Positions 36,921 to 55,185 of a DNA stretch of 64,000 bases are shown piece after piece. Each line of letters starts with the position of its first letter. The first letter of the stretch is position 1. The notes below the pieces were generated by a model, which searched no databases, was not told the DNA's origin, and saw nothing but the letters and a program-made list of their open reading frames with translations. The position numbers and the translations under genes are program-made. Source of the DNA: Acidobacteriota bacterium (GTDB taxonomy: Bacteria > Acidobacteriota > Terriglobia > Acidiferrales > UBA7541); contig JAJYLB010000011.1 in NCBI GenBank assembly GCA_021788095.1, positions 28,593 through 92,592 on the forward strand, given 5' to 3'.

Positions 36921-38527
36921 CAATGCCACTCCCACTCGAGGAAGCCCGGCTTCACGTCCGACATGGCATTCACGATCAGCTCGACCAACCCGCCGTAGAG
37001 GATCCGGTGTTTCTCCCAGAGGCCGTAATAGGTGAACATGTCCCGGAACTGGCCTTTGCAGTTGCTGCACGGGGCGCAGACGTATTTCGGGATCGAGGGG
37101 TCGAGGCAATCCTCGAAAGCGGTGAGGATTTGCAAGAGTTTCTTGCGGCCCGACACCTGGAAGCGCCAGTCCTGGAAATTGTTCCCGCTGATGATGGCGA
37201 ACCCGCTTCCCCCGCCGCAGCAATAGTTCATCACGCCGTGAGGTTCCATCTCCCTGAACTGCGGGCACAGCTTGCGAAGGATTTCCCGCTGCGGTTCGAC
37301 CACGCCCATCAAACGCACCAGATTGCAGGGATCGTGCAGGGTCACGGGGAAATCGTTGCGGGCGGGGTCGAACCGGATCCGGCCGCTCGTGACGATGTCG
37401 CGCAAGAGCGTCAAGGAGCTTTCCCGCGGGATGTTGAGATCCCCCGTGAGCACGCGGTCGGCGATCAGCGTCAGGGCCTTGTGCGCGTGACCGCATTCGC
37501 CCAGAACGATCTTCTTGACTTTGAGTTTGCGCGCCGCTTCGGCGTGCTTGATCGCCACACGCGCGAATTGGGCGTCGTCGTAAAACACCCCGTAGTTGAT
37601 CGAGTCGTATCCCGCCAGCTCCGAAGACAGCGTCCAGGAAATCCCGGCGGCATTCAGCAGGAGGGCGAAGGCGCCGGGATTGTCGGGCCAGGCCACGATC
37701 TCGCCCGCATTGTGGATCAGCAGAATATCCGCCCCCTCGACGTCCCAGGGAGTCTTCACCGCAATGCCAGCCCGCTCGCTCGTGTCCTCGTCGATGAAAT
37801 CCATGTTGTCTCTTACGGCTGCGGCATTCATCCCCGTGGAAGAGCCGACGCGGAGCTGCAGCATGGACCCTTTCTCGTGCAGCTCTTTGGCGGTGATCCC
37901 CATCTCCTGGCTGAACACTTTCCGCAATTCGCGGGCGACCAAGCCGTTGTCGGCCCCGATGGGACACGCCTGGGCGCAGCGCCGGCACAGGTTGCAGCGG
38001 TAGCAAAGCTCGAGCAATCGGGCGACCAGAGGCCAGTTGAGTTGGATGTCGCCGTGCTGCCAGGCCGAGAGCAAGCCCCCGCGCTTGACGTATTTGAAGT
38101 AGAGGCGGCGCACGATCTCGGTGCGGAACGTGGGGCGGTAAATCTCGTTCCGGCCGCTGGCTTCGAAAATGTGGCAGGCGTCGGAACACGTCTGACACTT
38201 GGTGCAATGCTCCATCGTCAGCACGAGCGGTTGGAGGAAAGTCCAGTTGTTGTCCCGGTTGAACAGCTTCTCGAGGCCCGAAAGGAATTTCCCGACGAGT
38301 TCGTCTTCCTCCTGCTTGGTTTTCGGTTGTGGGAAATTGACGACGCACGTGTCGTCAAGGAAGCATTCGCACCCCGCCAGGGTTTGCGCCGGGAGCGGAG
38401 GCCAGTCGTGCTGGCCGGCGGGACCGTCGTAGGGCGGCGGCAGCGGCATCAGGTCCCTGCCCTCAAGATGAGTCAACGGTTCCCTGGCGGTCTTGGAGAT
38501 ATCCGCGACCTTGATTTTCTGCCTCAT
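36920..38527 (-). CDS. DsrK/HdrD-like CCG-domain iron-sulfur protein (second DsrK paralog)
   Basis: The ATG at 38527 overlaps the upstream stop (ATGA). Motifs CTKCQTCSDACH, CYRCNLCRRCAQACP, HDPCNLVR, NYCCGGGSG and CAPCSNCKGQF. Confidence 0.8.
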   Translation of the reverse strand: MRQKIKVADISKTAREPLTHLEGRDLMPLPPPYDGPAGQHDWPPLPAQTLAGCECFLDDTCVVNFPQPKTKQEEDELVGKFLSGLEKLFNRDNNWTFLQPLVLTMEHCTKCQTCSDACHIFEASGRNEIYRPTFRTEIVRRLYFKYVKRGGLLSAWQHGDIQLNWPLVARLLELCYRCNLCRRCAQACPIGADNGLVARELRKVFSQEMGITAKELHEKGSMLQLRVGSSTGMNAAAVRDNMDFIDEDTSERAGIAVKTPWDVEGADILLIHNAGEIVAWPDNPGAFALLLNAAGISWTLSSELAGYDSINYGVFYDDAQFARVAIKHAEAARKLKVKKIVLGECGHAHKALTLIADRVLTGDLNIPRESSLTLLRDIVTSGRIRFDPARNDFPVTLHDPCNLVRLMGVVEPQREILRKLCPQFREMEPHGVMNYCCGGGSGFAIISGNNFQDWRFQVSGRKKLLQILTAFEDCLDPSIPKYVCAPCSNCKGQFRDMFTYYGLWEKHRILYGGLVELIVNAMSDVKPGFLEWEWH

Positions 38528-39465
38528 TTCTTGCCGCCCTGTGCTGGATTGGTGATCGCGATTTCCGCCCACGTCTTGGCGCCATCGGCGCCGATGTGCG
38601 GCGCGGCCCACGTCGGCCGATAGGTCAGCATCTCGGCGATCCTCTTCTCGATCCCGCTTCCCCTCCCATTGGGCTGGTCGCCCCAGCGCACGGAGTGGTA
38701 GGTGAAATACTTCGCGATGAAATGCGACATATGCGTCAGCGGGATGTAGGCCACGAGCAGCGCGCCCAGTACCAAACCGAATCCGAAGAGCGCCGGGACC
38801 CGCAACCCTGCGTCGAAAGTCAGCAGGCCTCGCGCGAGGGCGAACGCGCTGAAGGAACCCTTGCCGCGCCAAAGGTAGCCGGCGGCCAAAAACCCAGCTG
38901 CGACGATGAAGAACAATAGATTAAAGATGTCGGCGGGCGTCGTATAGGGCTTGAGATCAGCGTCCGTGAGCCTCTGGAGGAGCAAACCCGCCGCGCCCGC
39001 CAGCGTCAATCCGATCCCGGCCGGCCCGAGGATCACGCAGGCGCCGTGGAGAACGATGCCTGGCCCGGCAGCCCAAGATCGAGGTGCGACGATCCAGAGG
39101 AAGGCGCTCGAAAAGAGAAGCGCTGTCGCGCCAAACAGCAGGTAGAGACCGAGGTGAAAGGGATAGGAGCGATACCACGTCTTCTTCTTGAACTCCCAGA
39201 GCCCTTTCAGGAAGAGCATCTCCGCCAGCATGGCCTTCAGCTCGCCAGACCGGTTGAATTTGGCGGGTTGGGTCCACCAGTCCTTCATTTCAAAATACGA
39301 ACCGCCATGCGCTGCTCGCCCCTTCTCCTCGTGAGGCACGGGGTAGATTTCCCAGCGCAGGTGCAGCGGCAGCCGCGCATAGCCCGCGGCTCGAACGATG
39401 CTGGCCACGACAAAGACCGCCAAGCTGGCGTACAAGACGGCATAGATTGCGATCGTGCTCACCAT
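38524..39465 (-). CDS. DsrM/NarI-like membrane cytochrome b (second DsrM paralog)
   Basis: Polytopic, with N-terminus MVSTIAIYAVLYASLAVFVVASIVRAAGYARLPLHLRWEIYPVPHE and PFHLGLYLLF. It is paired with a DsrK-like gene. Confidence 0.75.
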   Translation of the reverse strand: MVSTIAIYAVLYASLAVFVVASIVRAAGYARLPLHLRWEIYPVPHEEKGRAAHGGSYFEMKDWWTQPAKFNRSGELKAMLAEMLFLKGLWEFKKKTWYRSYPFHLGLYLLFGATALLFSSAFLWIVAPRSWAAGPGIVLHGACVILGPAGIGLTLAGAAGLLLQRLTDADLKPYTTPADIFNLLFFIVAAGFLAAGYLWRGKGSFSAFALARGLLTFDAGLRVPALFGFGLVLGALLVAYIPLTHMSHFIAKYFTYHSVRWGDQPNGRGSGIEKRIAEMLTYRPTWAAPHIGADGAKTWAEIAITNPAQGGKK

Positions 39466-39508: not shown

Positions 39509-40810
39509 TCACCGGCGATCCCTTCCGGAGGTCCCGTCTCCCGATGCCGGGAACTGTCCCGGGCTCGATAAAACGCCGGCCTGGCTCGCGTGCGCCGCCG
39601 ACCCGACAGGGCCGCGGGCGCCCCCGGGCTCGTAAGTAGGCGAATGTTCCGCTCCCTCCTCCGCGTTCACGGCGATGGCGATCTTGTAGAACACCGTGAT
39701 CATCAAGGCGCCCGCGGCCCAGACGCCAAGCGTGATGGTGACTTCGGGCAGGGTGGGAACGTAGCTCGTGACGGCGCCCAGGGGCGAGGGGGAGAAGCCG
39801 CACACCACCAGGCACACGCCCTTGTCCATCCAAAGCGAGGTAAACACCGCCGCACACGCGATCGTCAGCCATCTCTCGCTACGGCGCAGCCGAGGAACCA
39901 GTAGTGGCGCCAGCGCCGCGAACATCAGGAGCAGGGAGACTTGGCCGAAAACGCCGAGCAGGGTCGGCCCGCCTTGTCCGAGGTACATCAGCTTGAGGTG
40001 CTCGGTGAGCTCGGGGACGTGGCTGTAAAAGGCCGTGAAGAGTTCCATCATGAGGAGGAAAACGTTGGCGAGCATGGCGTAAGTCACGACCACCGCCAGG
40101 CCGTCGATCGCTTTCTTGCCGACGTCGTATCCCGTGAGTTTTCGCGCCAGCAGACACAGAAGGATCAGTAGGGCGGGCCCGGCGGCGAAGGCCGAAGCCA
40201 GGAAGCGAGGGGCGAGCACCGCCGTGCGCCAGAACATCCGCCCCGGCAAACCGCAGTACAAGAACGCGGTGACCGTATGAATGCTGATGGCCCAAGGAAT
40301 CGAGAGCCGAATCACGGGAGAGAGCCAGCCGGCGAGCGGCAGATTCTGCTGCTCCGCGTGCAGCGCGTTGACCGTGATGATCGCGTTCAGGAAGAGATAA
40401 CCGGAAAGCGAGACCATGTCCCAGAACATGATCGAGTGGAATTGCGGGTAGAGGATGACGTTCAACGCGCGCGTGGGACTTCCCATGTCGATCAGGATGA
40501 ACGCCAGGCACATCGTCACCGCGGCCACCGCCAGCGATTCCCCCAGAATGGTCATGCGGCCGAATTCCCTGCGGTTGTGCAGATAGTAGGGAATCACCAC
40601 CATCACCGCCGACGCCGCAATTCCCACCAGGAAGGTGAACTGGCCGATATACAGCCCCCAGGAAACGTTCCGGCTCATTCCCGTGATGCCCAGCCCGTAG
40701 CGGAGTTGGTGGAGATAGACGACGAAGGCAACCCCGATGAAGGCAACGAGGCCCGCGACCCAGAGCTGGTATCTCCGGCTGCCCTCGAGCGCCTTTTCGA
40801 ACAGGAACAT
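39509..40810 (-). CDS. dsrP: DsrP, NrfD-type membrane subunit of DsrMKJOP
   Basis: Ten-TM NrfD-like protein (GMSRNVSWGLYIGQFTFLVGIAASAV) directly after dsrO. Confidence 0.85.
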   Translation of the reverse strand: MFLFEKALEGSRRYQLWVAGLVAFIGVAFVVYLHQLRYGLGITGMSRNVSWGLYIGQFTFLVGIAASAVMVVIPYYLHNRREFGRMTILGESLAVAAVTMCLAFILIDMGSPTRALNVILYPQFHSIMFWDMVSLSGYLFLNAIITVNALHAEQQNLPLAGWLSPVIRLSIPWAISIHTVTAFLYCGLPGRMFWRTAVLAPRFLASAFAAGPALLILLCLLARKLTGYDVGKKAIDGLAVVVTYAMLANVFLLMMELFTAFYSHVPELTEHLKLMYLGQGGPTLLGVFGQVSLLLMFAALAPLLVPRLRRSERWLTIACAAVFTSLWMDKGVCLVVCGFSPSPLGAVTSYVPTLPEVTITLGVWAAGALMITVFYKIAIAVNAEEGAEHSPTYEPGGARGPVGSAAHASQAGVLSSPGQFPASGDGTSGRDRR

Positions 40811-40820
40811 CGTCCACGCC

Positions 40821-41597
40821 TCAGATCCGGTAATAGATGTTGGGTCCGGTGCCCAACTCGGGCTTTCTCCGCAAGACGTAGCTCTCGCTCAGCACCTCGC
40901 GCACCTCGGAATGGGGATCGTTCACGTCGCCGAAGAGCAGGGCTTTCTCGGGGCAGGCTTCGACGCAAGCCGGCAATTTCCCCGCGACCACACGCTCGGA
41001 ACAGAACGTGCACTTCTCCACCACGCCCAGGGTTCTTGTGGGGAAATCGGGGTTGGGATTCGCGAGGTACGCGCGCGGATCGACCCAATTGAAGCTGCGC
41101 GCTCCGTAGGGACACGCGGCCATGCAGTATCGGCAGCCGATGCAGCGGTGCCAATCCATCATCACGATCCCATCTTCCTCGCGCTTCCAGGTGGCGCCGG
41201 TGGGACACACACGCACGCAAGGCGGCTGGTCGCAGTGGTTGCACAAGACGGGAATTTGCTCGTCGCGGCGCGCGGCGTCCAGGTACTGGACGTCGCTTTC
41301 GTCGAACACAACGTCGGCCGGCTCGTTCCAGATCCACTGGATTTCGTGGGCCTTGTCGGGGATGGCGGGGATGTTGTGCGCCGCGTCGCACGCCTCGATG
41401 CAGCGGGTGCAACCCGGCTCCTTGGCGCACTTCGCCGTATCCACGATCATCGCCCACTGCTTGCGCGGCCGCGGCTTCGCGCCGCCCGGGAAGGTAGCCC
41501 CGGCGGCGCGGTCGAGAGCGGCAAGTTCCCGGCCGCCGAACACCAGAACGAGCCCCGCGCCGGAGAGCTTCAGGAACTCCTTCCTCGTGATCTTCAT
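40821..41597 (-). CDS. dsrO: DsrO, periplasmic 4Fe-4S ferredoxin-like subunit
   Basis: From the ATG at 41597, a Tat-like leader MKITRKEFLKLSGAGLVLV. Cluster motifs CNHCDQPPCVRVCP, CIGCRYCMAACP and CTFC...CVEACP. Confidence 0.85.
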   Translation of the reverse strand: MKITRKEFLKLSGAGLVLVFGGRELAALDRAAGATFPGGAKPRPRKQWAMIVDTAKCAKEPGCTRCIEACDAAHNIPAIPDKAHEIQWIWNEPADVVFDESDVQYLDAARRDEQIPVLCNHCDQPPCVRVCPTGATWKREEDGIVMMDWHRCIGCRYCMAACPYGARSFNWVDPRAYLANPNPDFPTRTLGVVEKCTFCSERVVAGKLPACVEACPEKALLFGDVNDPHSEVREVLSESYVLRRKPELGTGPNIYYRI

Positions 41598-42013
41598 CGC
41601 GCGGCCCCTTTCCCGAGTGCGGGGTCCACGTGGCAATTCCAGCAGTAGGGCGTTCGCGCGCCGACGTAATCGTGGCAGCGATCGCAGAATTCGCGCTTGT
41701 CGTGGCAAGAGAGGCAGGTCTTCGTCAGGCTCTTCGGGTAGGTCTTGCCGTCGTACGCAACGTAGGTCGGGTTGTTTTCGCGCACCGCGCTTTGGCGCCA
41801 GTCCAGTAACAGTTGCATGTGGGAACCGCGCATGAAATCGAGTGGAGCCACGCACTGCTTCGCGTGGGCCGGCAGCACGAGCGCCGGAGGCCGCGTATTG
41901 GCGTGAGTTTCCCAATCGCGCCAGGTGGGAAGGGTCGCCACGCCGACGAACAGAAGCAATCCGCCGAGGATCCAGAACTTGTCACGCATGAATCGCCTCG
42001 GCTCCCTGGCCAA
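41594..42013 (-). CDS. dsrJ: DsrJ, trihaem cytochrome c subunit
   Basis: N-terminal membrane anchor and three haem motifs CLSCH, CDRCH and CWNCH. The more likely start is the ATG at 41989 (MRDKFWIL). Confidence 0.85.
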   Translation of the reverse strand: MAREPRRFMRDKFWILGGLLLFVGVATLPTWRDWETHANTRPPALVLPAHAKQCVAPLDFMRGSHMQLLLDWRQSAVRENNPTYVAYDGKTYPKSLTKTCLSCHDKREFCDRCHDYVGARTPYCWNCHVDPALGKGAAR

Positions 42014-43601
42014 GCGGCTGCCCGCGGAGGTCCGTCGTCCTCTCCTTCTCCCCTTTCATCACCAGCGCGTTGCCCACCAGCTCGTGCACCCCGCCCACTT
42101 CGACTCCGGGCGCCCAGTACGCGAGCGCGGTGGGAAGCGTGGCCTTGTCGATCGCGCAGATGCAGGTGAGCAGATTCACCCCGTACTTGTCGCGCACGTA
42201 CTTCACCGCGTTCGCGCGCGGCAATCCGCCGCGCAGACGCATCTCGATGTTTTCATCCGAGCCCAGGCCGGCCCCGCTGCCGCAGCAGAACGTCTGCTCG
42301 CGAATCGTGTTTTCGGGCATCTCGTGGAAGCGGTTCGCCACCCTTCGCAGGATGTAGCGCGGCTCTTCGAGCAAGCCCATGGCGCGCGCCGGATTGCAGG
42401 AGTCGTGGTAAGTCACCGTCCAGTGGTCGTTGCGGCGGGAATCGAGTTTCAGCTTATGGGCGTGGATCAGGTCGGCGGTGAATTCGCAGATGTGCACCAT
42501 CTTCGTCGAGCGCGCGTTCTCGAATCGGGTTCCCGTAACCGGGGAAACCGGCTCTTCCAGGAAATCCGCCGGGCCGTTGAGCGTGTCCATGTATTGATGG
42601 ATCACGCGCCACATGTGCCCGCACTCCCCGCCCAGAACCCACTTCACGCCCAGCCGCTTCGCTTCCGCGTAGATCTTGGCGTTCAGCCGCTTCATCATTT
42701 CGTGCGAGCTGAACAGGCCGAAATTCCCGCCTTCGGAAGCGTAGGCGCTGAAGGTGTAATCGAGCCCGATCTCGTGGAAGAGCGCCAGGTACCCCAGCAG
42801 CGTGTAGTAGTGCGGCGTGGCGAAGTAATCGGCGGAAGGAACCACGAAGAGAATCTCGGCGCCCTTGCGGTTGATGGGCGCCTCCACCCGGACCCCGGTC
42901 AGGTCCTCCAGATCGTCCACCGCGAAGTCGATGCTGTCTTTGAATCCGTGGGGCTGAATGCCCAGGTGGTTCCCGGTCCGGTAGCAGTTCGCGGCGGGCT
43001 CCAGCACCCAGTTGGTGTTCACGCCCACCAGGTTCAACAGCTCGCGCACCATCATCGTGATCTCGGCGGTATCGATTCCGAAGGGGCAAAAGACGGAGCA
43101 GCGCCGGCATTCCGTGCATTGGTAGAAGTAGTAGAACCACTCCTTGAGGACGTCTTCGGTCAGGTCCCGGGCTCCCGCCAGGCTTCGAAAGACCTTCCCC
43201 GCCGTCGTGAAATAGCGGCGGTAGACTGAGCGGATGAGTTCGGCCCGCAGGACCGGCATGTTCTTCGGATCGGCCGAGCCAAGATAGAAATGGCACTTGT
43301 CCGCGCACGCCCCGCAGCGTACGCAGATGTCCATGAACAGGCGGAAGGAGCGGAATCGTTCCAGCCGCTCCTTCATCCCCGCGAGGATGATCTCCTTCCA
43401 ATTCGGCGGCAGCTTCCAATCCTGGTCGGTCGGCTGCCAATCGCGGGGATTGGGCAGCTCCAGATAACGCACGCTCTTCGCCCCTGCGGCGTGGCAGAAA
43501 GTTCCCTTGCGGAATTCCACCGGGCTCCCGCGCCAGTCCCCCGGCGGCGGATCGTAGCTGATCCGAACCAGTTCCTCGGGTCGTGTCGCGGTCTCAGGCA
43601 C
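41982..43601 (-). CDS. dsrK: DsrK, catalytic CCG-domain subunit of DsrMKJOP
   Basis: Motifs CVRCGACADKCH, CTECRRCSVFCP, HDSCNPAR and TFCCGSGAG, in the canonical position after dsrM. Confidence 0.9.
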   Translation of the reverse strand: MPETATRPEELVRISYDPPPGDWRGSPVEFRKGTFCHAAGAKSVRYLELPNPRDWQPTDQDWKLPPNWKEIILAGMKERLERFRSFRLFMDICVRCGACADKCHFYLGSADPKNMPVLRAELIRSVYRRYFTTAGKVFRSLAGARDLTEDVLKEWFYYFYQCTECRRCSVFCPFGIDTAEITMMVRELLNLVGVNTNWVLEPAANCYRTGNHLGIQPHGFKDSIDFAVDDLEDLTGVRVEAPINRKGAEILFVVPSADYFATPHYYTLLGYLALFHEIGLDYTFSAYASEGGNFGLFSSHEMMKRLNAKIYAEAKRLGVKWVLGGECGHMWRVIHQYMDTLNGPADFLEEPVSPVTGTRFENARSTKMVHICEFTADLIHAHKLKLDSRRNDHWTVTYHDSCNPARAMGLLEEPRYILRRVANRFHEMPENTIREQTFCCGSGAGLGSDENIEMRLRGGLPRANAVKYVRDKYGVNLLTCICAIDKATLPTALAYWAPGVEVGGVHELVGNALVMKGEKERTTDLRGQPLGQGAEAIHA

Positions 43602-44601
43602 GGGTCCGCTCCTTCTCCAGAGGAAGACCCGCGCTCGCGATCTTGTCGTGAAATTCCTCTTCCCACTCCTGGTAGGTGTGCACTTTGACGGGATAGTCCC
43701 AGGGATTCACATGCCGCCGGGCGCGGCTGTCGTTGGCCAGGTTGCGCGTGGGACTGAGGAAGATCCCGCCCATGTGCATCAGCTTGCTGAATGGGAAGTA
43801 GGCGAGCAGAAGGCTCGCGAAAGTCAGATGAACGAAAAACAGCGGCCCCACGCTCGCGGGGACCAACGGGGAAAACGTGACCAGTCCCAGAGCGAGTTGC
43901 TTGATGCCCTCGAGATCCACTTTCGTGAAGTACCGCATCAGGATTCCGGTGATCGCGATTCCCAGGAGCAGAAAAAGGGCGAAAAAGTCGCCGGGGAGCG
44001 ACAGGTAGCGAACGCGCCCGTTCGCAAACCGCCGCGCGAGAAGGTAGAGAAGCGCGGCGACGATGACGGCGTCGGTCACGAACAACTGAGGAGCGCCGAT
44101 CTGCAGGAAGCCGTCCACGGCGTCCAGAGCCGGCAGGAAAGCGGGCACGGGGCTGAGGAAGTAGCGGAGATGGCGAACCAAAACGACGAGCAGCGACCAG
44201 TGGAAGGCCAGGGCCCCCAGCCACAGCCACTTGTTCTCGGCGTAGAGCAGCCTCGGTCCCTCTTCTTCGAGCCGCGCCTGGCTGTTTCGGAAAAGCGACC
44301 GGAACAGGAGGATCTCCAAAGCCATGCGCGCCGCAACACCCGCCTTGTGATTCGGGTTCTCGATGGGGTTCGATCGAATCCACCCGAGGCTCTTTTGCTG
44401 TCCGCAAGTGGTGGGAATGTGGAAAGGCAGCGCGGACCAGGCCCAACGCACTACGCGGAAACTGAATCCGATGAGGAAAATTCCCATGGCGGCGTAGGGC
44501 AGGACGACGCCCAGCAGCGCGCGCGTTCCCGGCAGCAGCCCGCCCGCGTAGGCGAGGCCGGCAACCCCGAGAATCGCGGCCAGTGGAACGAGCGCTTTCA
44601 T
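43594..44601 (-). CDS. dsrM: DsrM, membrane dihaem cytochrome b
   Basis: NarI-like polytopic protein (LPFHIPTTCGQQKS, LAFHWSLLVVLVRHLRYF, FSKLMHMGGIF), the first gene of the dsrMKJOP block. Confidence 0.9.
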   Translation of the reverse strand: MKALVPLAAILGVAGLAYAGGLLPGTRALLGVVLPYAAMGIFLIGFSFRVVRWAWSALPFHIPTTCGQQKSLGWIRSNPIENPNHKAGVAARMALEILLFRSLFRNSQARLEEEGPRLLYAENKWLWLGALAFHWSLLVVLVRHLRYFLSPVPAFLPALDAVDGFLQIGAPQLFVTDAVIVAALLYLLARRFANGRVRYLSLPGDFFALFLLLGIAITGILMRYFTKVDLEGIKQLALGLVTFSPLVPASVGPLFFVHLTFASLLLAYFPFSKLMHMGGIFLSPTRNLANDSRARRHVNPWDYPVKVHTYQEWEEEFHDKIASAGLPLEKERTRA

Positions 44602-44614: not shown

Positions 44615-45091
44615 TTACCCCTCCCGGGAATACATCCTCTCCAGTTGCGCGACCCGTCGCCGGGCCTCGTCCGCTTGGATCTGGTAGATCTGCTCGCGAA
44701 AGCGCATGAAGAGATCGAAGGCGGCCAGCGCCAGCTCGTCCACGCGTTCCTCCCACCGGGCGAGCGTCTCCCAGTCCGCCGCGGACTCCTCCCGCAAGAT
44801 GGTCTTCAACCCGAAGAGGAAACCCACCGCTTCCCTCGCGGAGAACCGCTGCACGGCGCGCAGTCGCATCAGGTCTTCCAAGGCGGCGCCCACCTTCCCC
44901 GCATCCATCTCCCCGAAAAGCTCCTCCACGAGTTCGGGAATGCGCTTGCGAAGCGCCTGGCCCGCGGGATTCCGGAACGGATCCCTCTGATCCACCAGGA
45001 ACCGCCGCGACGGGACCGGATACGTCTGGACCGCCAGGGCGAGCCATCGCTCCGCCATCGCGTGCTTCCGCGCGGGGGAAATGCCGGCCAT
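44615..45091 (-). CDS. dsrT: DsrT-like protein (RsbRD N-terminal-domain family)
   Basis: The ATG at 45091 is preceded by AGGAGGAGCC. DPFRNPAGQALRKRIPELVEELF and LMRLRAVQRFSAREAVGFLFGLKTILREE resemble the RsbRD_N domain. The position between dsrC and dsrM fits DsrT. Confidence 0.6.
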   Translation of the reverse strand: MAGISPARKHAMAERWLALAVQTYPVPSRRFLVDQRDPFRNPAGQALRKRIPELVEELFGEMDAGKVGAALEDLMRLRAVQRFSAREAVGFLFGLKTILREESAADWETLARWEERVDELALAAFDLFMRFREQIYQIQADEARRRVAQLERMYSREG

Positions 45092-45099: not shown

Positions 45100-45417
45100 C
45101 TAAACGCAGCCGGTCGGCTTGGGCAGGCCGGCCAGCTTGCAGGCGCCTTTCGCCGGTCCCGAGGGAAACAGGTTGTAGATCTCCTTCAGGGAGAACCCGG
45201 TCTGCTTGCACACCTTGCGAACCATGGGCGCGATGCCGAACTGCAGGTAGTAATCGCGGATGTAGCGAATCACTTTCCAATGATCTTGGGATAGGTCGCC
45301 GATCCCTTCGGTGGCCATGAAGTCTTTGGCCACTTCTTCGTTCCACAAACTGGGGTCTTGCAAGAACCCGTCCTCGTCGACTTCGTAGACCCGGCCGTGG
45401 GATGTATAGTTAGGCAT
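45100..45417 (-). CDS. dsrC: DsrC, sulfur-carrier substrate protein of DsrAB/DsrK
   Basis: 105 aa. The C-terminal arm GACKLAGLPKPTGCV carries both conserved cysteines. Confidence 0.95.
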   Translation of the reverse strand: MPNYTSHGRVYEVDEDGFLQDPSLWNEEVAKDFMATEGIGDLSQDHWKVIRYIRDYYLQFGIAPMVRKVCKQTGFSLKEIYNLFPSGPAKGACKLAGLPKPTGCV

Positions 45418-45432: not shown

Positions 45433-46641
45433 TTACGTCATGTCGATGTACCGGCAAGGGCACTCCTCGGCGCATTTCTGACACCCGTTGCATAGTTCGA
45501 GTTTGATTTGGAAGTGTTGGCCCTTCGGAAGCCGGGCGAAGCAGTTGTTGGTGCAATACATCCAGCACACTTCGCAATCCATGCACATCCCGCAGGACAT
45601 GCAGCGCGCCGCTTCGGCGACGACTTCCGCTTCGCTCAGCTCGGGCGCGCTGCTGTCGCAGCGCGCTGCCGGCTTGTAGTAGTCCAGCTTCAGCTTGTCG
45701 GCCTTGATGACCGGCGGGCGAAGGTCTGGGCGGGCGGGCCGCCGTTCCAGGAAAGCGGCGATGGCTTCGGCGACCGCGCGTCCCTGCGCGATGGCGATGC
45801 TGACCGTGTTCAACACGCGCGGCTGAATGCCCGTGGGCTCCTCGTTGGGGATCGTGGGCGGTTCGGCAGCAAGCGCGCCTGCGAGACACGCCTCCCCATC
45901 CCGCCCCGGGCGAAGTTCGAGTTGCGCCGCCTTCTGGAAGCCCATCGCGAAGAATACGGCGCGATAGTCGCGTTGCAATTGCTCGAGGGGGATGTCGCGG
46001 CCGACCACGCAGCGCGTCTTCAGTTCCACTCCTAGCTGAAGGATATTCGCGATTTCCGCATCCAGAACGGTTGCGGGAAGGGTACTGCGCGGAATCTGGT
46101 AGCGCATCATGCCCCCGGGCCGCGGCGCCGCTTCCAGCACCGTGACCGCATAACCCAGGAGCGTCAGGTGATACGCCGCCGCGAGCCCGGCCGGGCCCGA
46201 GCCTACGATGGCGATCTTCGATGCGTTGGCGCTTGGGCCGGCCTTTCGCTCCGCCCGCCAGCCCTGCGCAATCGCGTAGTCGCCGACGAACCGTTCCAGG
46301 CGGTTGATCGCCACCGGGCCTTCTTTCGCCTTGCGATTGCAATTCAGCTCGCACGGATGCTGGCACACCCGCCCGCAGATCGCCGGAAACGGATTGCGCT
46401 CGAGAATCGTGCGCCACGCGAATTCGAACGCCTGCGCGGGCGTGCGGCCATATTCCTTGTGCTGGGCGATGGCCACCAGCCAGGCGCGGACGTCGGTTCC
46501 CGTCGTGCAGCTATGAAGGCAGGGCGCGGTCTTCGGCGCGTAGCGGGGGCGCAGCGCGCTGATCTCGGCGCCCGGCGTCACCGCCGCCTTCACCGTCGGT
46601 TTCTTCACCGCCTTGAAAATCGTCATCGCATCGCTCCGCAC
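45433..46641 (-). CDS. shortened DsrL/GltD-like iron-sulfur flavoprotein lacking the NAD(P)H-binding domain
   Basis: GltD-type N-terminal Cys motifs (CLHSC, PFPAICGRVCQHPCELNC), the FAD GxGxxG motif (KIAIVGSGPAGLAAA) and the DsrL-type C-terminal ferredoxin domain (CMSCGMCMDCEVC, CNGCQKCAEECPC). Only ~25 aa lie between ...AVFFAMGFQKAAQLELRPG and ...TVSIAIAQGRAVAEAI, where a second Rossmann domain normally sits. GTG start at 46641, or ATG at 46626. Confidence 0.65.
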   Translation of the reverse strand: MRSDAMTIFKAVKKPTVKAAVTPGAEISALRPRYAPKTAPCLHSCTTGTDVRAWLVAIAQHKEYGRTPAQAFEFAWRTILERNPFPAICGRVCQHPCELNCNRKAKEGPVAINRLERFVGDYAIAQGWRAERKAGPSANASKIAIVGSGPAGLAAAYHLTLLGYAVTVLEAAPRPGGMMRYQIPRSTLPATVLDAEIANILQLGVELKTRCVVGRDIPLEQLQRDYRAVFFAMGFQKAAQLELRPGRDGEACLAGALAAEPPTIPNEEPTGIQPRVLNTVSIAIAQGRAVAEAIAAFLERRPARPDLRPPVIKADKLKLDYYKPAARCDSSAPELSEAEVVAEAARCMSCGMCMDCEVCWMYCTNNCFARLPKGQHFQIKLELCNGCQKCAEECPCRYIDMT

Positions 46642-46700: not shown

Positions 46701-46949
46701 CTACTCCGGGGCCGCGCCCTCCTTGTGAGGAAGGGTGATGTAACTGCCGCCGAAGTAGCTGTAGACGCAGCGTCCCGAGTCGATCAGCAAACGGATGGCG
46801 TGCTTGCAGTCTTCCTTCGTGCACTCCGCCTCCCCGAACTTGGCGATCATCGCCTTGGTCAGATCGGTGGCCTTCAGGTTCTTCTTCCCCATGTATTCCG
46901 CCACCATCTGGTACATCGCTTCCGCGATCGTTTCTGTTGCGGCGGGCAT
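46701..46949 (-). CDS. dsrD: DsrD-like small winged-helix protein
   Basis: 82 aa immediately after dsrB. AIRLLIDSGRCVYSYFGGSYITL resembles the DsrD C-terminal motif (VLEYWSSGSTTMYGL in Desulfovibrio). Confidence 0.65.
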   Translation of the reverse strand: MPAATETIAEAMYQMVAEYMGKKNLKATDLTKAMIAKFGEAECTKEDCKHAIRLLIDSGRCVYSYFGGSYITLPHKEGAAPE

Positions 46950-46958: not shown

Positions 46959-48038
46959 CTAATACCGGATATGCGTGGAGCGGGCGTACGTCTGCCCCGC
47001 GTACCGGAAATCGTCGATGTGGTACCGCGTGAACGGGATCCCGGTCAGCTCGAAGAACCGCGGCCAGCCGATTCTCTCGATCCAGTCCCCCACCCGTTCG
47101 AACTTCCGGGCGTTCCGCGCGTAGACGTCCACGATGTTCGCGACCGCCTCCACCACCTCGGGCCAGCGCGGCGGGTTGTTGGGAATGAACGGAATCGCCA
47201 GCTTGGAAAACCGCGGCGCCGACCGCGCGTTGCTCACCTTCCCCCCTACCCAGATGGAGAGGCCGTCGTTTTCGGGATCGTTGAGCGGCATCGAGGGGCA
47301 CACGGTGTAGCAGTTGGCGCAAAACATGCACTGCTCCTCGATCACCTCCACCGAAGGCTGCCCGTCCACCGTGGCCGAGCGAATGGCGCCGGTGGGACAC
47401 GACGAGATCACGTTGGGGATTTCGCACAGCTTCCGCAGGGTGTCGTGCTGCACGCGCGGCGCCCGCCGGTGGATTCCCAGGATCGCGATGTCGGAGCAGT
47501 GGACCGCGCCGCACATGTTCAGGCAGCAGGCCAGGGCGATCCGCAGCTTCCCCGGCAGCTTCTGCTCGGTGAACTGATCGCACAGCCGGTCCATGACCGC
47601 CTTCACGATCCCCGAAGCGTCCGTGGCCGAGGAATGGCAGTGGACCCAGCCCTGCGTATGCACGATGTTGCTGATCGAGTTCTGCGTACCCCCGACGGGG
47701 AACCCCGCCGCGGCGAGTTCCTGCTTGAGCGGCTCGATGTTCTGGGGATCGGCCAGCAGAAATTCGACGTTGTTTCGGCTGGTGAATCGCAGGTAGCCGC
47801 TCGAGTACTTCTCCGCCAGATCGGCCATCAAGCGCACGGAGGCCAGGCCCACCAGGCGCGGCCAGCCGGCCCGCACGGTATACAGGCGGTCGCCGCTCTC
47901 GGCGACGTGGCACAAGACGCCCGGAGCCAGAATTTCGTGATACCTCCACTGGCCGTAGTTCTTCTTGATGAGGGGATGGAGGAACTGCCGGAAGTCCGGC
48001 GGTCCGATGTCTGTCAATCGCTCCGCTTGCGTTGCCAT
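46959..48038 (-). CDS. dsrB: dissimilatory sulfite reductase beta subunit
   Basis: Motifs [17 protein letters not shown] and [14 protein letters not shown], and the ferredoxin insert CPTGAI...[12 protein letters not shown]. Confidence 0.95.
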
Positions 48039-48062: not shown

Positions 48063-49283
48063 CTACCTTTGCGCCGCGGCCCCGTTGCCGTCTCCCGCCG
48101 CCTCCGCGTCTTCCTTCTTGAAAAAGATGTAGGGGTTGTCGCGAGGAGCGGAAATCATCTCGGGAACGGGATCGAGCCCGATGGCGTCGAGGAACGTCGC
48201 CATCCCTACCCGCTGAATCAGCTCGCCCACCCTCTCGCGGTTGTTTCCGTACTCGCCCCAGAAATCCCAGATCCTCGATACCAGCTCCTTCAGCGTTTCG
48301 AGCAGCTCGTCGGCCGGAACGAAGGGAATCAGCACGGAGGAGAGCAGGGCCCCTTGCAGGATGGGGGCCTTGGCGCCGATCAGCACGACGGCGCCTTTCT
48401 CCTTCCCCGGGCGCAGCGCCTTGGGCAAAACGTTGATGCAGTGCATGCACCGCACGCATTCGCGGTTCTGGATCTTCAGCTTCTTGCCGTCCCATTCCAT
48501 GCACTTCGTGGGACAGTGGTCGCAGACGTCCTTCTGAATGTCCACCCCGGCGGCGGCGTACTCGGCGATGGCCGCGTTGTCCTGCTGGATGTCGTCTTTC
48601 CAGGTGCCGATGATGGAGAGGTCGGCCCGCGCGATCGACGCCACGCAATCGTTCGGGCAGCCGCTGAATTTGAATTTGAACTTGTAGGGGAACGGGGGCC
48701 GGTGCAGCTCGTCCTGGTAGGTGTGCGTGATCTCGTTGCAGAGATCCATCGTGTCGTAACAGGCCCACTCGCACCGCGCCTGGCCCACGCATGCCGAAGG
48801 CGACCGCATCACCGAGCCGGATCCGCCCAGGTCGAACCCGAGATGGGTCAATTCCTGGAACGTCGGCTCGAGCTGATCGGTTCTCGTGCCCAGAAGGATG
48901 ATGTCGCCCGTCGAGCCGTGGAAATTGAACAGGCCGGAGCCGTGCCGCTCCCAGATGTCGCAGATCTTCCTCAGCACTTCGCTCGTGTAGAACCAGCCGG
49001 AGGGCATGTTCACGCGCATCGTGTGGAAATGAGCCACGTTCGGGAACTTCTCGGGCACGTCGCTGTAGCGCCCGATCACTCCCCCGCCGTAACCCATCAC
49101 GCCGACGATGCCCCCGTGCTTCCAATGGCTGATCTTCTCCTGGTAGGAAAGCTCCAGTTGTCCGAGCAGGTCCGCCGCCATCGGCTCGCTCTCGGCCGCG
49201 CTCTTGATCTCCTTGACGAAACTCGGCCAGGGTCCCTTCTCCAGCTCGTCCAGCAACGGCGTCTTCTTGTTGTCGTCGGGCAT
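48063..49283 (-). CDS. dsrA: dissimilatory sulfite reductase alpha subunit
   Basis: The ATG at 49283 is preceded by GGAAGGAGAAAGAGGGC. Siroheme/Fe-S motifs CVGQARC and GCPNDC, and ferredoxin insert CDHCPTKC...CVRCMHC. The upstream part of the 816-aa track ORF overlaps qmoC out of frame. Confidence 0.95.
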
Positions 49284-49309: not shown

Positions 49310-50455
49310 TCAGCCGCGCGCGGCCAAGGCGTCTTTTCGCACCGCGTCCACGTAGATCGCGACGGGGCGGTAAAGCAGATGCGCCCACTTCCCAAACGGC
49401 ACTTCCACCACGAGCATCGGCGCCGCGACCGCCAAGTGGATCGTGTACATCACGTAGGTAGGCATCGGCAGGTTCTCGACCCGCAAGAGGTTCACCAGGA
49501 TGCCGGTCGCGGCGGTGAGCAGCAGCAAGGCCGGAAACAGCCAGTCGGAAAGATGGCTGAAGCGGTACATCTCCCCGCGCTGGCGCGCCCGATCCAGAAT
49601 CATCCAGCCCGAGCCGGCCACCAGCACCCCCGTGGCGTAGTACCCGAGATAACTCGTCCAGTGAAGGCTGTCGTTCTGCACCTGAAACCACGGGAGGAAA
49701 ATCACCACCAGCGTGAACATCAGCATGTAGCCGCTCGCCAGCGCCAGGTGCCGCACCCAGTTCTTGATCGCATCGTCGGCTTGGCAGCCCTTCCACCGCG
49801 ACTGGGTAAAGAGTTGCAGCGCGAGCGTCGGCAGGCGGCGGAGGTAGGTCGCGAGCGGAATCCCGTCGTTGCGCGTCAGCCGCCGGAACATCCTGGCCGC
49901 GTTGGTCAGCAGGAAGAAGCCAAGCAGCAGCGCCAGCATCGTGTCCGCCAGGTGCACGGTCTCGACCGGCGCGAACTTGTCGAGCATCACCGAGCGAAGC
50001 GCCTGCGGACCCGCTTGATTGAGCAGCCCGAAGCCGAAACCGCGCGGCAGGGTGAACAGCAACACCACCACGCTCGCCACCAACCCCAGAATTCCCAGTT
50101 CCCAGGCCGCCGACCGGTACATCAGCCGCGAGAGGCCCGTCCAGTCGTATTGCGTGGTGAGGTAACGGCGCAAAGCCATCATCGTTTCTCCGGGATTGGC
50201 TTTGCGTAGGCAGTCCTTCGAGCATTCCCCGCAATAAAAACAGAGCCAAGGACCGGGATCCTCGACGAGCCGCTCCTTCAGCCCCCACTGCGCGAGCAGC
50301 ATCTGCTTGCGCGGGAAACCGTTCTCGGCCGTGGAAAGCTTGCAGACCGCGGTGCAGGTCGCGCATTGGAAGCACTTCTTCACGTCGCCTGCGCCGAGCG
50401 ACATCAGTTGGTCCACCAACCGGAGATCGGGCTCGACCATGACCGCTTGTTCCAT
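49310..50455 (-). CDS. qmoC: QmoC (HdrC-like Fe-S domain fused to HdrE-like membrane cytochrome b)
   Basis: N-terminal [11 protein letters not shown] and [11 protein letters not shown] motifs, followed by six TM helices. Confidence 0.9.
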
Positions 50456-50457
50456 CT

Positions 50458-52713
50458 CTAGAAGCCCTTATAGGGGTTCGGCCCCATTTCCCGAATGCGG
50501 CCCGCGAAGGCATCGATCGCCGCCGGCAGCCGCCGGTATTCGTCCAGCGAAACCTCGATCGTTTCGATCCGCCCCGGCTCCAGTTGCAGCCGTTCGAGCG
50601 TCTCCTTCACGTTCTCCAGGCGGCGGCTGGCGATCTCGCTGCCCTTGGCGAAGTGGCACTGGTAGTCGTCGCCGTGCTTGCAGCCGGCGAGCATCACGCC
50701 GTCGATGCCGCGCGACAGGGCGTCGGCAATCCACACCACGTTCAGCGAGCCCAGGCAGCGCAGGGGAATCACCCGCACCGAGGCGTCGTACCGCCCGCGC
50801 CCCATCGCGATGGCGTCGAGCGCCGGATAGGCGTCGTTCTCGCACAGAAAGAGGAGGATCCGGGGCTTCTCCTCTTCCTCGCCCGGCACGTCGATCGCTT
50901 TGATCATTCCCGCGATCGTGTCCACCGAATAGTTCTTGAACGAGATGATGCGTTCCGGGCAGGCGCCCATGCACACCCCGCAGCGCCGGCACCGCGTGGG
51001 ATTGAACTTCGGCGTGCCCTTTTCGTCCTCGTCGATCGCCCCGAAGGGGCACTCCACCGTGCACCGCTTGCACTGCGTGCATCGCTGCAGGAGGAAACTC
51101 GGATAGGACCCATCGCCGGCGCGGGGATGAACGGCTTGCCCGCGCGACGCCATTTCAACGCATTGGATGGCTTTCATCGCCGCGCCCAGGCCGTCCTCTT
51201 CCGCCGCCGAAGCGTCCATCGGCGCGTGGACCGCGCCCGCGGCGTAGATGCCGGTCCGCAACGTTTCATAGGGGAAGCAGATGAAGTTCGAGCCGGGGAA
51301 TCCGTCTTTCAGCAGCGGAAGCTCCGGTCCCTGGCGATACGCCAAGTGGAGCGCGCCACCCGGATCGACCGGCCACCCGGCGGCCTTCGCCCCCGCTCCC
51401 GCTTCGCTTGCGGCTTGCCCCGCGTCGCCGCTCGAGGCTCCCTGCGCTGGCGTCGAGCTTCCGCCGTTCTTGCCATTCGGCGCGTTGGGAACGAAACCCG
51501 TCGCCAGCACCACCAAATCCGCCGGCACGCGAATCGTCTCGCCGAGCGAGCTGTTCTTGACCTCGACGGCGAGATTGTCTCCCGTGTGACGGGTGACGCT
51601 CGATACTTCGCCGCGCAGCAGGAACGTCGCGGGATGGTTCTGCACCTCGGCGAAGTAACGTTCGTATTGCCCCGTAACGATGATGTCCCTGTGAAGGATG
51701 GAAACCTTCACGCGCGGATCGCGCCGGTGAATCAAGTCGGTCTGCTGGAGCGTGGTCAGGCAACACACCGCCGAGCAGTACGGCAGATGGTTCTTGTCCC
51801 GCGAGCCCGCGCATTGGATGAACGCGACGCTTTCCGCCGGCTTGCCGTCCGACGGCCGAACCGGCGGGCCGGCCCCCAGCATCGTCTCGAGCTGGTCGCC
51901 GGTGATGACGTTTGGAGAAGCGCCGTAGCCGAGCTGGCCCAGCCGCGCCGGATCGTAAGGCGTCCAGCCGGTGGCCATGACGATGGCGCCGACGCGATGG
52001 GAGAAGTGTTGGCCACCGCTTTCGATCGTGACTTCGAACGCTCCCGGTTGGCCCTCGGTTCGGGCGACGCGTGCGCCGGCGTGCGCGGTGATCCTGGGAT
52101 GGACGGCGAGTCTGGTGATGTTCCGGGCCAAGCCGCGCTCTGGGAGTTCGGTGTGGGGCGTGCCGTGGGGAAAATCGTTCCGCGTGGCTCCGAGACGCCC
52201 GCCCAGCCCCGCTTCCTTCTCCACCAGAACGACTTCGTAGCCGGCGTCGGCCGCTCCCAAAGCCGCCGCGATCCCCGCCGTGCCGCCTCCGACCACCAGA
52301 ATCGCGCGGGAAACCTCGGCAACGCAGGGCTCGAGCGGCTCCATCTTCTGCGCCTTCACCACGCCCATGCGCAAGTAGTCCTCGGCAAGCCGCTGCGTCT
52401 CTTCTTCCCGCGGCGCATGGCTCCAAGCGACGTGCTCGCGCAGATTGACGCGCTCGACGACCAGCCGGGGATCGAAGGTGAACGCCGCCGATTTCATCCG
52501 CGGCGAACACGCCGCGATCACCACCGCATCCACCGTTTTCTCCGTGACGTCTTTCCGGATCGCCGAAAGCCCGGCTTCGCTGCACAGGAAGGGATGCACG
52601 CGGCAAACCGGAACCTTGCATTCTTCTCGGGCGACGCCGGCCAGGCGCTCTACGTCGAGCGATTCCCCGATCGAGCACCCGCTGCAGATGTAGGCTCCGA
52701 CGCTCTTACTCAT
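50458..52713 (-). CDS. qmoB: QmoB (HdrA-like flavoprotein with ferredoxin and MvhD-like domains)
   Basis: Motifs [36 protein letters not shown] and the C-terminal MvhD-like [14 protein letters not shown]. Confidence 0.9.
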
Positions 52714-53980
52714 GGGGAGCGCTCCCCGCGACGTGCGGCAAGGCCGCGAGCGCCGCTCCCGTCGCGTCCCGGACGCTGGCGGCCACTTCCTCGGGCCGCT
52801 TCACGCACCCGGCGGCGTAGAGCCCTGGCGTTCCGTTCACCACGAACCCGAACTCGTCTCGCGCAAACGCGGCGGGAAGCCCCTCCGACCGCGGCACCAT
52901 CCCCGTGGCCAGCACGACGAGACCGAATCTGGCCGTCGATTTCCTTCCCGGGGGCACGTCCTCGGCGGTGACGAGCAGGTCCTGCGTGCCGGGGTCTTCT
53001 TCGATCGCGCCTACTTTCCCTCTCACCAGCCTCAGGCGATCGCTCGCTGCCGCCTTGGCGCGGAACTCTTCGAGCAGCCCCGGGGTGCGCAGGTCGATGT
53101 AGAAAATCGCGATCTCGGTTTCGGGGTAGAGGGCGTGGAGGTAGGTGCTGTGCTTCAGGGAGGCCGTGCAGCATACGGTCGAGCAATACGCCAGGTGGTT
53201 TTCGTCACGCGACCCCGCGCATTGCACGAACGCAACGCTCGCCGGGGCCTGTCCGTCCGATGGCCGCAGGATCTTGCCGCCCGTGGGGCCGTCGGGAGCC
53301 GCCATCCGCTCGAGCGCGACGTTCGTGACGACGTTCTCGAATTTGCCGTAGCCGAAACGGTCCAGCCGCGCCGCGTCGTAAGGCGCCCAGCCCGTCGCCG
53401 CGATCGCCGCGGCCACGCGAAACGTCCGGATCTCCGTCCGCTGGTAGAGATCGATGGCCCCGTAGCGGCACGCATCCACGCACCTGCCGCAACCCTCCGC
53501 GCAAGCCGCTCGATCGATGGCGTACGCCCCGGGAAATGCCATCGCCCGCGGAAAGTAGATGGCCTTGCTCTTCCCCAGCCCCAAGTTGAAATCATCGGCT
53601 CGTTCGGCGGGGCAAACGTCCACGCAAGCCCCGCACAGCGTGCAGGCGCCGGTGACGTATCGCGGCCGTACGCGAATCCTGGCCTCGAAGTTTCCGGCCG
53701 TCCCCGAAAGCGATTCGAGTACCGCTTCCGTCAAGACGGTGATCCGCGGATTCTGCTTCAGGCGCCGGAAGTTGATCTCGAAGCCGCAGGTGGGAGGGCA
53801 GAGCTTGGGGAAATAGAGGTGCATCGCCGCCGCCCTCCCTCCCAGGAACGGCGAACGCTCGATGAGAAGGACGCTGGCGCCGGCTTCGGCCGCCTCGAGC
53901 GCGGCCGTCACTCCTGCTATTCCACCGCCAACGACCAGAATCCTACTTCGCTCCAGGTCTAGGAAACTCCCACTGCTCAT
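52706..53980 (-). CDS. qmoA: QmoA (HdrA-like flavoprotein)
   Basis: Motifs ILVVGGGIAGVTAALEAAEAG and CTLCGACVDVCP. It overlaps qmoB by 8 nt. Confidence 0.9.
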   Translation of the reverse strand: MSSGSFLDLERSRILVVGGGIAGVTAALEAAEAGASVLLIERSPFLGGRAAAMHLYFPKLCPPTCGFEINFRRLKQNPRITVLTEAVLESLSGTAGNFEARIRVRPRYVTGACTLCGACVDVCPAERADDFNLGLGKSKAIYFPRAMAFPGAYAIDRAACAEGCGRCVDACRYGAIDLYQRTEIRTFRVAAAIAATGWAPYDAARLDRFGYGKFENVVTNVALERMAAPDGPTGGKILRPSDGQAPASVAFVQCAGSRDENHLAYCSTVCCTASLKHSTYLHALYPETEIAIFYIDLRTPGLLEEFRAKAAASDRLRLVRGKVGAIEEDPGTQDLLVTAEDVPPGRKSTARFGLVVLATGMVPRSEGLPAAFARDEFGFVVNGTPGLYAAGCVKRPEEVAASVRDATGAALAALPHVAGSAPHE

Positions 53981-53986
53981 ACATCC

Positions 53987-54817
53987 TCAGCGTTCCAGCG
54001 CCGCCTGCGCCCGAGCCGGGTCGGGCTGGCGCCATGCTAGCGGCGGCGCGTCCTTCCTCAGCCGCATGGTCTGTTCCTGGAACAGGCAGAACCGCAGCCA
54101 TTCCATGGCGAATTCCAGCAACTCCTCGTCGTCCGATCGCAGCGCTTCCACCCTCTCCTCGTGCACCTCGAAAAACTTGAAGAAACGCGTCTCGAAGAGG
54201 AACCGGCGGAAGCGGTCCAAATCGAAGCAGGCCATCAGGTACATCGAGACCTGTTCCGCCGATAGCGGCTCCTCCTTCCGCCAGAATTCGTTCAGCATGA
54301 GCTGCTGGAAGGAAGCGCCCATCATCTCGAAGGCGTCGATCCCTTGCTCGGAAATCCATTCCTGCACGGTGCGGCTTCCCCTGCCGTGCCCGTGGCAGAA
54401 CTTTTCCTGAAGGAGGAAATAGAAGCCGCGCTCGGTCGGGGTCGGGTGGTCCGGTTCGGCTCGGCCCAGCGGGTACATGCGGCACGCCCAGGGCCGGTCC
54501 TTATAGACCGAGCAGCCCTTCTCCGTAACGAAGGGGCAGCGCTTGTCTTCCTCTCCCATCCGCAGCAGCACGATGGGCAGCTTCTTGTTCCGCGTGCAGG
54601 AAAGCACGGTATGGCGGCTCAGAAATTCACTCGAGCTGATCCCCAGTGCGCGTTTCATCCGCAGCGCGTCGTAGGGGGTAAGAACGATGGAAACATCGCG
54701 GCAGCAGTGCGTGTAGCAGTCCAGACTCCCTTCGCAGCGAAAGTCCAGGATGTCGCCCGCGCCCAAGCGGGCCGGCGCCGCTTCGCTTCTCGCCCGCTCG
54801 GCGATTCCTTCAGGCAT
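53987..54817 (-). CDS. YkgJ-family Cys-cluster (putative zinc/iron-chelating) protein
   Basis: Motifs CYTHCCRD and CPFVTEKGCSVYKDRPWACRMYP are characteristic of the CxxCxxCC/YkgJ family. A ~130-aa C-terminal extension follows. Confidence 0.65.
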   Translation of the reverse strand: MPEGIAERARSEAAPARLGAGDILDFRCEGSLDCYTHCCRDVSIVLTPYDALRMKRALGISSSEFLSRHTVLSCTRNKKLPIVLLRMGEEDKRCPFVTEKGCSVYKDRPWACRMYPLGRAEPDHPTPTERGFYFLLQEKFCHGHGRGSRTVQEWISEQGIDAFEMMGASFQQLMLNEFWRKEEPLSAEQVSMYLMACFDLDRFRRFLFETRFFKFFEVHEERVEALRSDDEELLEFAMEWLRFCLFQEQTMRLRKDAPPLAWRQPDPARAQAALER

Positions 54818-54820
54818 GGC

Positions 54821-55096: not shown

Positions 55097-55185
55097 GGAA
55101 ATCCTGCGCGTCAGCGAGGCTCGCCCGCCGCGGCGGGCGAGCCTGCCCGTGACGGCGCCGGCGCACGAGCGCCGGCGCGCAAACG

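Follow-up and report, generated by a model that had tools for sequence, protein, structure and literature searches.

In a 64,000-nucleotide stretch of DNA from a soil or peat member of the Acidobacteriota (contig JAJYLB010000011.1, positions 28,593 to 92,592; hereafter, the window), we found a complete dissimilatory sulfate-reduction supercluster whose dsrL gene encodes a short protein that lacks, in frame, the domain for reduced nicotinamide adenine dinucleotide (phosphate) (NAD(P)H). We consider it highly probable that this gene is a working one whose product has no canonical site for NAD(P)H. It is also likely that the short DsrL is a functional descendant of DsrL-2 and that it serves the sulfite reductase DsrAB with electrons taken from some donor other than NAD(P)H bound in the canonical way.

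Domain architecture of the short DsrL

The minus-strand open reading frame (ORF) at 45433-46641 is unbroken and counts 402 amino acids (aa) from a GTG. A prediction made earlier from the sequence alone (the original prediction) had taken this whole ORF as the protein. The ORF is indeed intact, but the homologs and independent gene calls start at an ATG five codons inside it (MTIFKAVKKP...), giving a gene at 45433-46626 and a protein of 397 aa. Residue numbers below refer to the 402-aa ORF unless stated otherwise.

We compared the protein with the full-length acidobacterial DsrL-2 of loci L004, L005 and L007 (544-553 aa), which came from a genome scan that also gave four short ones. In the alignment, about 145 residues are absent between '...FAMGFQKAAQLE' and 'LNTVSIAIAQGR...', and 13 more are absent from the linker before the C-terminal ferredoxin. 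With this stretch, the protein has lost the second glycine-rich motif (VVVGGGDTAIDAA), the YRR motif and, from the flavin adenine dinucleotide (FAD) domain, the GGD strand. Also absent are the glycine loop, helix alphaA and the beta2/YRR segment, together with the remainder of the NAD(P)H domain. What remains is a single GxGxxG (residue 147), with no YRR and no GD strand. The YRR motif marks the NADPH specificity of DsrL-2 (PMC7596348). Thus, the NAD(P)H-binding Rossmann domain expected of a DsrL (second GxGxxA, with YRR in DsrL-2) is missing. A regular-expression search found no real cryptic second dinucleotide motif in the window protein or in its best 120 relatives; four matches among the latter were spurious, three lying in the retained helix 'AIGQGR' and one being a 'YRR' in the N-terminal domain. 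The original prediction of an in-frame loss of the NAD(P)H-binding domain was therefore confirmed by the alignment, the single GxGxxG and the lack of YRR. Its further claim, that NAD(P)H cannot be used in the normal way, agrees with the absence of the canonical site in the alignment, the motif search and the profile comparison, and canonical NAD(P)H activity is predicted to be lost. However, the loss is not confined to the NAD(P)H domain as had been supposed, since the GGD strand of the FAD domain is gone as well. The parts of the gene are as follows:

45433-46626, minus strand: short dsrL, 397 aa from the ATG (the mechanical ORF reaches the GTG at 46641)
46252-46551, minus strand: N-terminal GltD/NfnB-type domain for two [4Fe-4S] clusters (residues ~31-130)
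45922-46221, minus strand: first half of the FAD-type Rossmann domain (residues ~141-240)
45814-45921, minus strand: connector replacing the NAD(P)H domain and the GGD strand (residues 241-276, 36 aa)
45742-45813, minus strand: retained closing helix of the FAD domain, 'NTVSIAIAQGRAVAEAIAAFL' (residues 277-300)
45607-45741, minus strand: linker leading to the ferredoxin domain (residues 301-345); compared with full-length relatives, it is shorter by 13 aa, and it ends in a conserved helix
45436-45606, minus strand: conserved RC347xxC350G pair, then the C-terminal 2x[4Fe-4S] ferredoxin domain (C353/356/359/363 and C384/387/390/394)

The redox core is kept. Pfam matched Fer4_20 at residues 37-127 (E = 6.6e-17), the start of an FAD/NAD Rossmann domain at 142-180 and, weakly, a di-cluster ferredoxin at 352-401. 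The 566-aa NCBIfam profile PRK12771 aligned in two separate stretches with 332.8 bits, under its cut-off of 516; the protein thus falls short of the score above the curated cut-off, over the full profile, that marks the GltD/NfnB small-subunit family (PRK12771-type). Fe-S ligands, which were mapped from published work (PMC7596348) and an NfnB alignment, occupy positions C41, C45, C93, C97, C101 and E116 and are invariant in the short and full-length sets alike. The FAD half-domain shows G147-x-G149-x-x-G152, the acidic residue 170 at the end of beta2, G176-G177 and the strand 'AVFFAMG', and the C-terminal ferredoxin has two CxxCxxCxxxC motifs in which every Cys is invariant; its matches to Fer4_21/PorD-like domains are weak. 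When 69 short forms were compared with 21 full-length DsrL-2, the Fe-S ligands, the FAD GxGxxG and GG and the ten C-terminal Cys were equally invariant, which bears out the earlier statement that the N-terminal Fe-S cysteines, the FAD GxGxxG and the C-terminal double ferredoxin are kept. Of the FAD domain, the GxGxxG, the acidic residue (D or E in 100% of the short forms), the GG and the closing helix are present and invariant, and the GGD strand is absent. Because the cofactor motifs and the acidic residue at the end of beta2 stay invariant, the short DsrL probably retains FAD. Hallmarks of a DsrL that the protein does have are the two-cluster N-terminal domain, the linker with its C-terminal ferredoxin and the linkage to dsrAB and dsrC.

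HMMER weakly aligned the segment before the ferredoxin of the full-length L007 DsrL to the N-terminus of NfnB (residues 9-42, ending 'EAQRCLQC'), a stretch which presumably contains the distal-cluster ligands Cys39 and Cys42 in the numbering that we use. The equivalent segment of the window protein lies at 45592-45642 (residues ~334-350, 'ELSEAEVVAEAARCMSCG'); in L007, it precedes the C-terminal ferredoxin. The N-terminus of DsrL is described as being without the distal-cluster Cys ligands seen in NfnB (PMC7596348). It may be that the C-terminal linker folds back so as to complete the distal cluster of the N-terminal domain.

The junction itself had been described as a short Pro/Glu-rich linker. 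It does join the two flanks, but it is in fact a connector of fixed length: across the 69 short forms gaps are nearly absent, and the anchors G249, G255, P262, R275 and N278 are conserved. In profile-profile alignments, its '...EACLAG' maps to the beta1 strand 'VIVVG' before the glycine loop, and its 'E(L/P)PAE' maps to the conserved 'EMPAI' that follows YRR. The NAD(P)H domain was therefore whittled down and what was left of it remodelled, with no clean excision. Judged from these alignments, the connector is made up of remnants of that domain and is no mere scar. An AlphaFold2 model built from the 69 short forms (predicted template-modelling score, 0.80; predicted local distance difference test scores of 84-97 over residues 120-300 in the 397-aa numbering) gave the connector, including a short strand, high confidence.

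Relatives, conservation and descent

Reductive-type DsrL-2 is represented by DaDsrL-2 of Desulfurella amilsii and by acidobacterial DsrL-2 (PMC7596348, PMC10591310), the latter being named 'DsrL-2C' by Diao et al. 2023 (PMC10591310). The short form resembles these proteins in its N-terminal two-cluster domain with the reductive-type 'S..RP' signature, in its FAD GxGxxG and GG motifs, in the linker followed by a two-cluster ferredoxin and in its operon slot after dsrAB(D) and before dsrC. It differs from them in that the whole NAD(P)H domain, including YRR, and the GGD strand are missing and the C-terminal linker is shorter. In a Foldseek comparison, about 200 residues, corresponding to the Fe-S domain and the first half of the FAD domain, superposed on NfnB, the GltD small subunit and the N-terminal module of DPD (4YLF_B, 5JCA_L, 2VDC_G and 1H7X) at 2.4-3.0 Å and 30-36% identity. 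All of these possess an NADPH domain, at whose expected start the structural alignment ends, as well as the GD strand; a C-terminal ferredoxin is found in none of them. The best sequence and fold matches were the GltD-like modules of the NfnABC/StnABC large subunits (9BOV_A, 9N5U_A and 8OH5_C). Like in DsrL, their FAD domain continues into an 'EAxRCxxCG' segment and further Fe-S clusters, but they are full-length NAD(P)H modules inside bifurcating subunits of ~950-1180 aa, and a gap of ~200 columns separates the two aligned parts. The alignment of the short form with NfnB, GltD, DPD and NfnABC/StnABC runs to residue ~235-250 and is taken up again only shortly ahead of the ferredoxin domain, whereas the full-length L007 protein matches the solved relatives without such a break.

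A further NAD-less protein came from locus L021, where a 416-aa GltD-like/PorD-like fusion (P0154/P0281) is encoded between the POR gamma and the POR alpha/beta genes (L021:5417-9352). In this 2-oxoacid:ferredoxin oxidoreductase operon, it takes the position of the delta (ferredoxin) subunit. This fusion also has the Fe-S domain, the FAD-type half and the C-terminal di-cluster ferredoxin with no second Rossmann domain. However, it is only 38% identical, has a G-G-K strand in place of GD and is not part of a dsr operon.

The short form, known only from metagenome-assembled genomes, makes up a large, monophyletic family. The best 120 homolog clusters (56-100% identity), on which our estimate of at least 120 clusters rests, are all 351-429 aa long, 106 of them being 390-399 aa, and none has a real second Rossmann motif. 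These are the ~400-aa homologs with the same deletion that the original prediction had proposed to look for, and the dsr linkage sought with them was found as well: the order dsrAB-(dsrD)-short dsrL-dsrC-dsrT-dsrMKJOP is present in the window and in 7 of the 8 related short-clade loci (L001-L003, L013, L015, L017 and L019; the exception is L006). A protein search with the 95-aa junction segment gave no matches, with the word index limiting it to the 32 candidates that shared words. In a neighbour-joining tree of the shared regions, the short proteins and P0121 formed one clade (100/100 bootstraps). This clade was sister to the acidobacterial full-length DsrL-2 with 68/100 in this distance method, the only one used, and it is thus placed within or next to the DsrL-2 of organisms with reductive DsrAB.

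Selection was estimated against an 84%-identical relative as the ratio of nonsynonymous to synonymous substitution rates (dN/dS). This ratio was 0.18 for the whole gene; taken by region, the Fe-S domains gave 0.03-0.06, the retained helix 0.10 and the connector 0.44, and the most conserved region was the C-terminal ferredoxin (0.035). Moreover, an identical protein was found on two separately assembled contigs (100.7 and 91.7 kb). Judged by its sequence, the protein is by descent a DsrL-2 derivative; by the functional definition, that of an NAD(P)H:acceptor oxidoreductase, it lacks a defining feature.

Loss of the NAD(P)H domain has occurred more than once. An exhaustive search of representatives showed that the family is mostly full length, with scattered forms of ~340-420 aa that have no second Rossmann motif. 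In Thermoanaerobaculia, P0139 (L011:6001-7185, 394 aa) is the short DsrL in the order dsrAB-dsrD-X-dsrN-dsrC-dsrT-dsrMK..., where X is the short dsrL, and in Thermoleophilia P0130/P0276 (L023:5176-6414, 412 aa) holds the same position in dsrOP-dsrAB-dsrD-X. Both resemble the window protein in their length (~394-412 aa), in having no second Rossmann motif and in following directly upon dsrAB-dsrD. Unlike the members of the window clade, these proteins retain a GGD or SGH strand, their connectors are short and unrelated, and in the tree the proteins fall outside that clade (100/100 bootstraps). Since the deletion boundaries differ, with the window clade having kept relics of the NAD domain and lost GGD, the losses are independent. 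A single ancestral loss common to P0139, P0122 and P0130 was rejected, as each lineage keeps parts that the others lost.

Long and short forms have also been exchanged. Compared with L013, which has a short form (L013:6001-7194), the window shows identities of 88% for DsrA, 87% for DsrB, 88% for DsrC and 84% for DsrL. The corresponding values for L007, which has a full-length form (L007:6007-7665), are 91%, 87%, 85% and 58%. Over the operon, the window is thus about equally close to both. The short clade arose long before the window and L007 diverged, and this pattern therefore points to a gene swap at the dsrL slot and not to a recent private deletion. Long and short DsrL would be, on this comparison, interchangeable partners for essentially the same DsrAB.

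Proposed electron supply to DsrAB

Of the two alternatives that the original prediction had left for this protein, a distinct electron-transfer adaptor is the favoured one, with its functional side still being inferred. The short DsrL would dock on DsrAB via its C-terminal ferredoxin domain, as proposed for DsrL (PMC7596348), and would relay single electrons through its four Fe-S clusters. The flavin, which is probably retained, would lie at the far end of this chain of clusters, being now either exposed or capped by the remodelled connector. With the hydride-donor site gone, NAD(P)H bound in the canonical way could no longer be the source of the electrons. The donor would most plausibly be reduced ferredoxin or a different redox protein that docks at the flavin or at the face of the N-terminal clusters. 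Contrary to what genome annotations assume, these bacteria probably do not feed their sulfite reductase from NADPH.

Some observations weigh against this picture. The GGD strand normally touches the ribitol of FAD; it is absent, and the acidic residue that might substitute for it is an Ala in the window protein. In the short-clade contexts examined, no gene for an alternative donor consistently co-occurs with the short form. Finally, the short dsrL of L006 has no dsr gene within 6 kb.

We regard it as unlikely that the short form still works as an NAD(P)H:acceptor oxidoreductase, with the nicotinamide placed directly over an exposed flavin or with an NAD(P)H module supplied in trans. The FAD half-domain and its closing helix are strongly constrained, so the flavin probably still reacts with something, and the function could be unchanged, as long and short forms share the same slot in near-identical operons. 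However, the window protein and the 120 relatives have neither a second dinucleotide motif nor a genuine YRR, which disposes of the cryptic site that would have spoken against the original prediction. Nor is a free-standing gene for an NAD(P)H domain consistently adjacent in the contexts examined, and a tblastn search found no second DsrL/GltD-like gene in the 64-kb window. To our knowledge, no member of the GltD/NfnB/DPD family uses NAD(P)H without an NAD(P)H-binding domain. Between dsrD and the short dsrL of L013, the closest relative of the window, lies a 150-aa ORF (L013:5534-5986). We considered this ORF as a candidate partner in trans and rejected it: Pfam gave no match for it, and the window lacks it, with a spacer of only 74 nucleotides (nt).

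It is likewise improbable that the short DsrL has a different role with no delivery of electrons to DsrAB, for instance, as a redox sensor or regulator, as a partner of DsrC or DsrMK or as a general ferredoxin-like module used wherever sulfite is produced. The gene of L006 lies directly downstream of suyA/suyB-, comC (Ldh_2)- and slcC (2-Hacid_dh)-like genes and an aldehyde dehydrogenase gene (L006:1487-7194), a neighbourhood resembling a sulfolactate-to-sulfite cluster, that is, a sulfite-releasing pathway. A NAD-less GltD-like/ferredoxin fusion replaces the delta subunit in L021, so that such a module can serve other enzymes. Against this, 7 of the 8 short-clade contexts put the gene directly between dsrB or dsrD and dsrC, even L006 is tied to sulfite metabolism, and the most conserved part of the protein is the C-terminal ferredoxin, the proposed DsrAB-docking element.

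A decaying pseudogene, the other alternative of the original prediction, or an assembly collapse at 45.8-45.9 kb has next to no probability and was rejected: although the closely related operon L007 has a full-length gene in the same position, the length and junction are common to at least 120 clusters with identities as low as 56%, the gene has a dN/dS of 0.18, two separately assembled contigs encode the identical protein, and the short clade is monophyletic, with a conserved dsr linkage, and far older than the window/L007 split. The intact frame and the tight packing between dsrD and dsrC, which had been held against decay from the start, agree with the purifying selection and conserved linkage seen here, and the large size of the short clade shows that the window copy is not uniquely deleted among full-length homologs. 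The preferred explanation thus remains that of a functional DsrL-2 descendant serving DsrAB.

The sulfur operon and the wider meaning of a short DsrL

The supercluster is encoded on one strand of the window in the order dsrN, aprBA, a CxxCxxCC protein gene, qmoABC, dsrAB, dsrD, short dsrL, dsrC, dsrT, dsrMKJOP and dsrM2K2. The spacers around the short dsrL measure 74 nt to dsrD and 15 nt to dsrC, and its cotranscription with dsrABD and dsrC is very likely. The genes around it are as follows:

49310-59192, minus strand: qmoC, qmoB, qmoA, the CxxCxxCC protein gene, aprA, aprB and dsrN, upstream of dsrA
48063-49283, minus strand: dsrA
46959-48038, minus strand: dsrB
46701-46949, minus strand: dsrD, 82 aa, 74 nt upstream of the short dsrL
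45100-45417, minus strand: dsrC, 105 aa, PF04358, 15 nt downstream of the short dsrL
44615-45091, minus strand: dsrT
39509-44601, minus strand: dsrMKJOP

The CxxCxxCC-domain protein, which is putatively Zn/Fe chelating, has 276 aa and is encoded at 53987-54817 between aprA and qmoA on the same strand. Two further paralogous genes follow dsrP, one of them DsrM-like (38524-39465) and the other DsrK-like with a CCG domain (36920-38872); dsrM2K2 paralogs are known from peat Acidobacteria and match this part of the window, 36920-39465 (PMC6018796). The supercluster is flanked by large sensor histidine kinases at 59446-62244 and 35421-~37000. The upstream kinase lies on the plus strand and has GAF, PAS and HisKA_3/HATPase domains. 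At the downstream flank, the C-terminal part of a 975-aa mechanical ORF resembles a PAS/histidine kinase, as judged by eye from the translation.

Short acidobacterial DsrL have been recorded before. Hausmann et al. 2018 named acidobacterial dsrL and mentioned in a footnote to Table S2a that two of the proteins are only 396 and 413 aa long, while their main text states that acidobacterial DsrL 'have the same functional domains' as the DsrL of A. vinosum (PMC6018796). Later work took acidobacterial DsrL as an NAD(P)H-dependent DsrL-2 and argued for NADPH-driven sulfite reduction, and the type of DsrL serves as a genomic marker for the direction of Dsr-based sulfur metabolism (PMC7596348, PMC8528874, PMC10564751, PMC10591310). 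The custom DsrL hidden Markov model of Diao et al. 2023 misses some DsrL sequences described earlier (PMC10591310), and those missed include some of the acidobacterial DsrL of Hausmann et al. 2018. In the literature that we searched, a DsrL lacking the NAD(P)H domain is nowhere described; the one pointer to it was the footnote on lengths in Hausmann et al. 2018.

As far as can be read from the sequences, the acidobacterial 'DsrL' of peat and soil include a large clade in which canonical binding of NAD(P)H is not possible. With the canonical site absent from the clade, metabolic reconstructions would assume the wrong electron donor, and the reconstructions for these organisms bear on wetland carbon and methane cycling. 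Long and short forms beside DsrAB that are ~90% identical provide a natural experiment that isolates the role of the Fe-S/flavin core without NAD(P)H. The overlooked and recurrently evolved NAD(P)H-less DsrL thus makes the question of the electron donor of DsrAB directly testable. Because the NAD(P)H domain was lost independently in at least three lineages and long and short forms swap beside near-identical DsrAB, we tentatively raise a broader possibility, doubtful as it is for now: the essential job of DsrL-2 in sulfite and sulfate reducers might not be the oxidation of NAD(P)H but that of an Fe-S/flavin hub for DsrAB, fed by other donors such as reduced ferredoxin. If so, the short form would be a distinct DsrL type and, among the widespread Acidobacteriota of peat and soil, a marker for sulfite reduction independent of NAD(P)H, and this would bear on the physiological electron donor of DsrAB.

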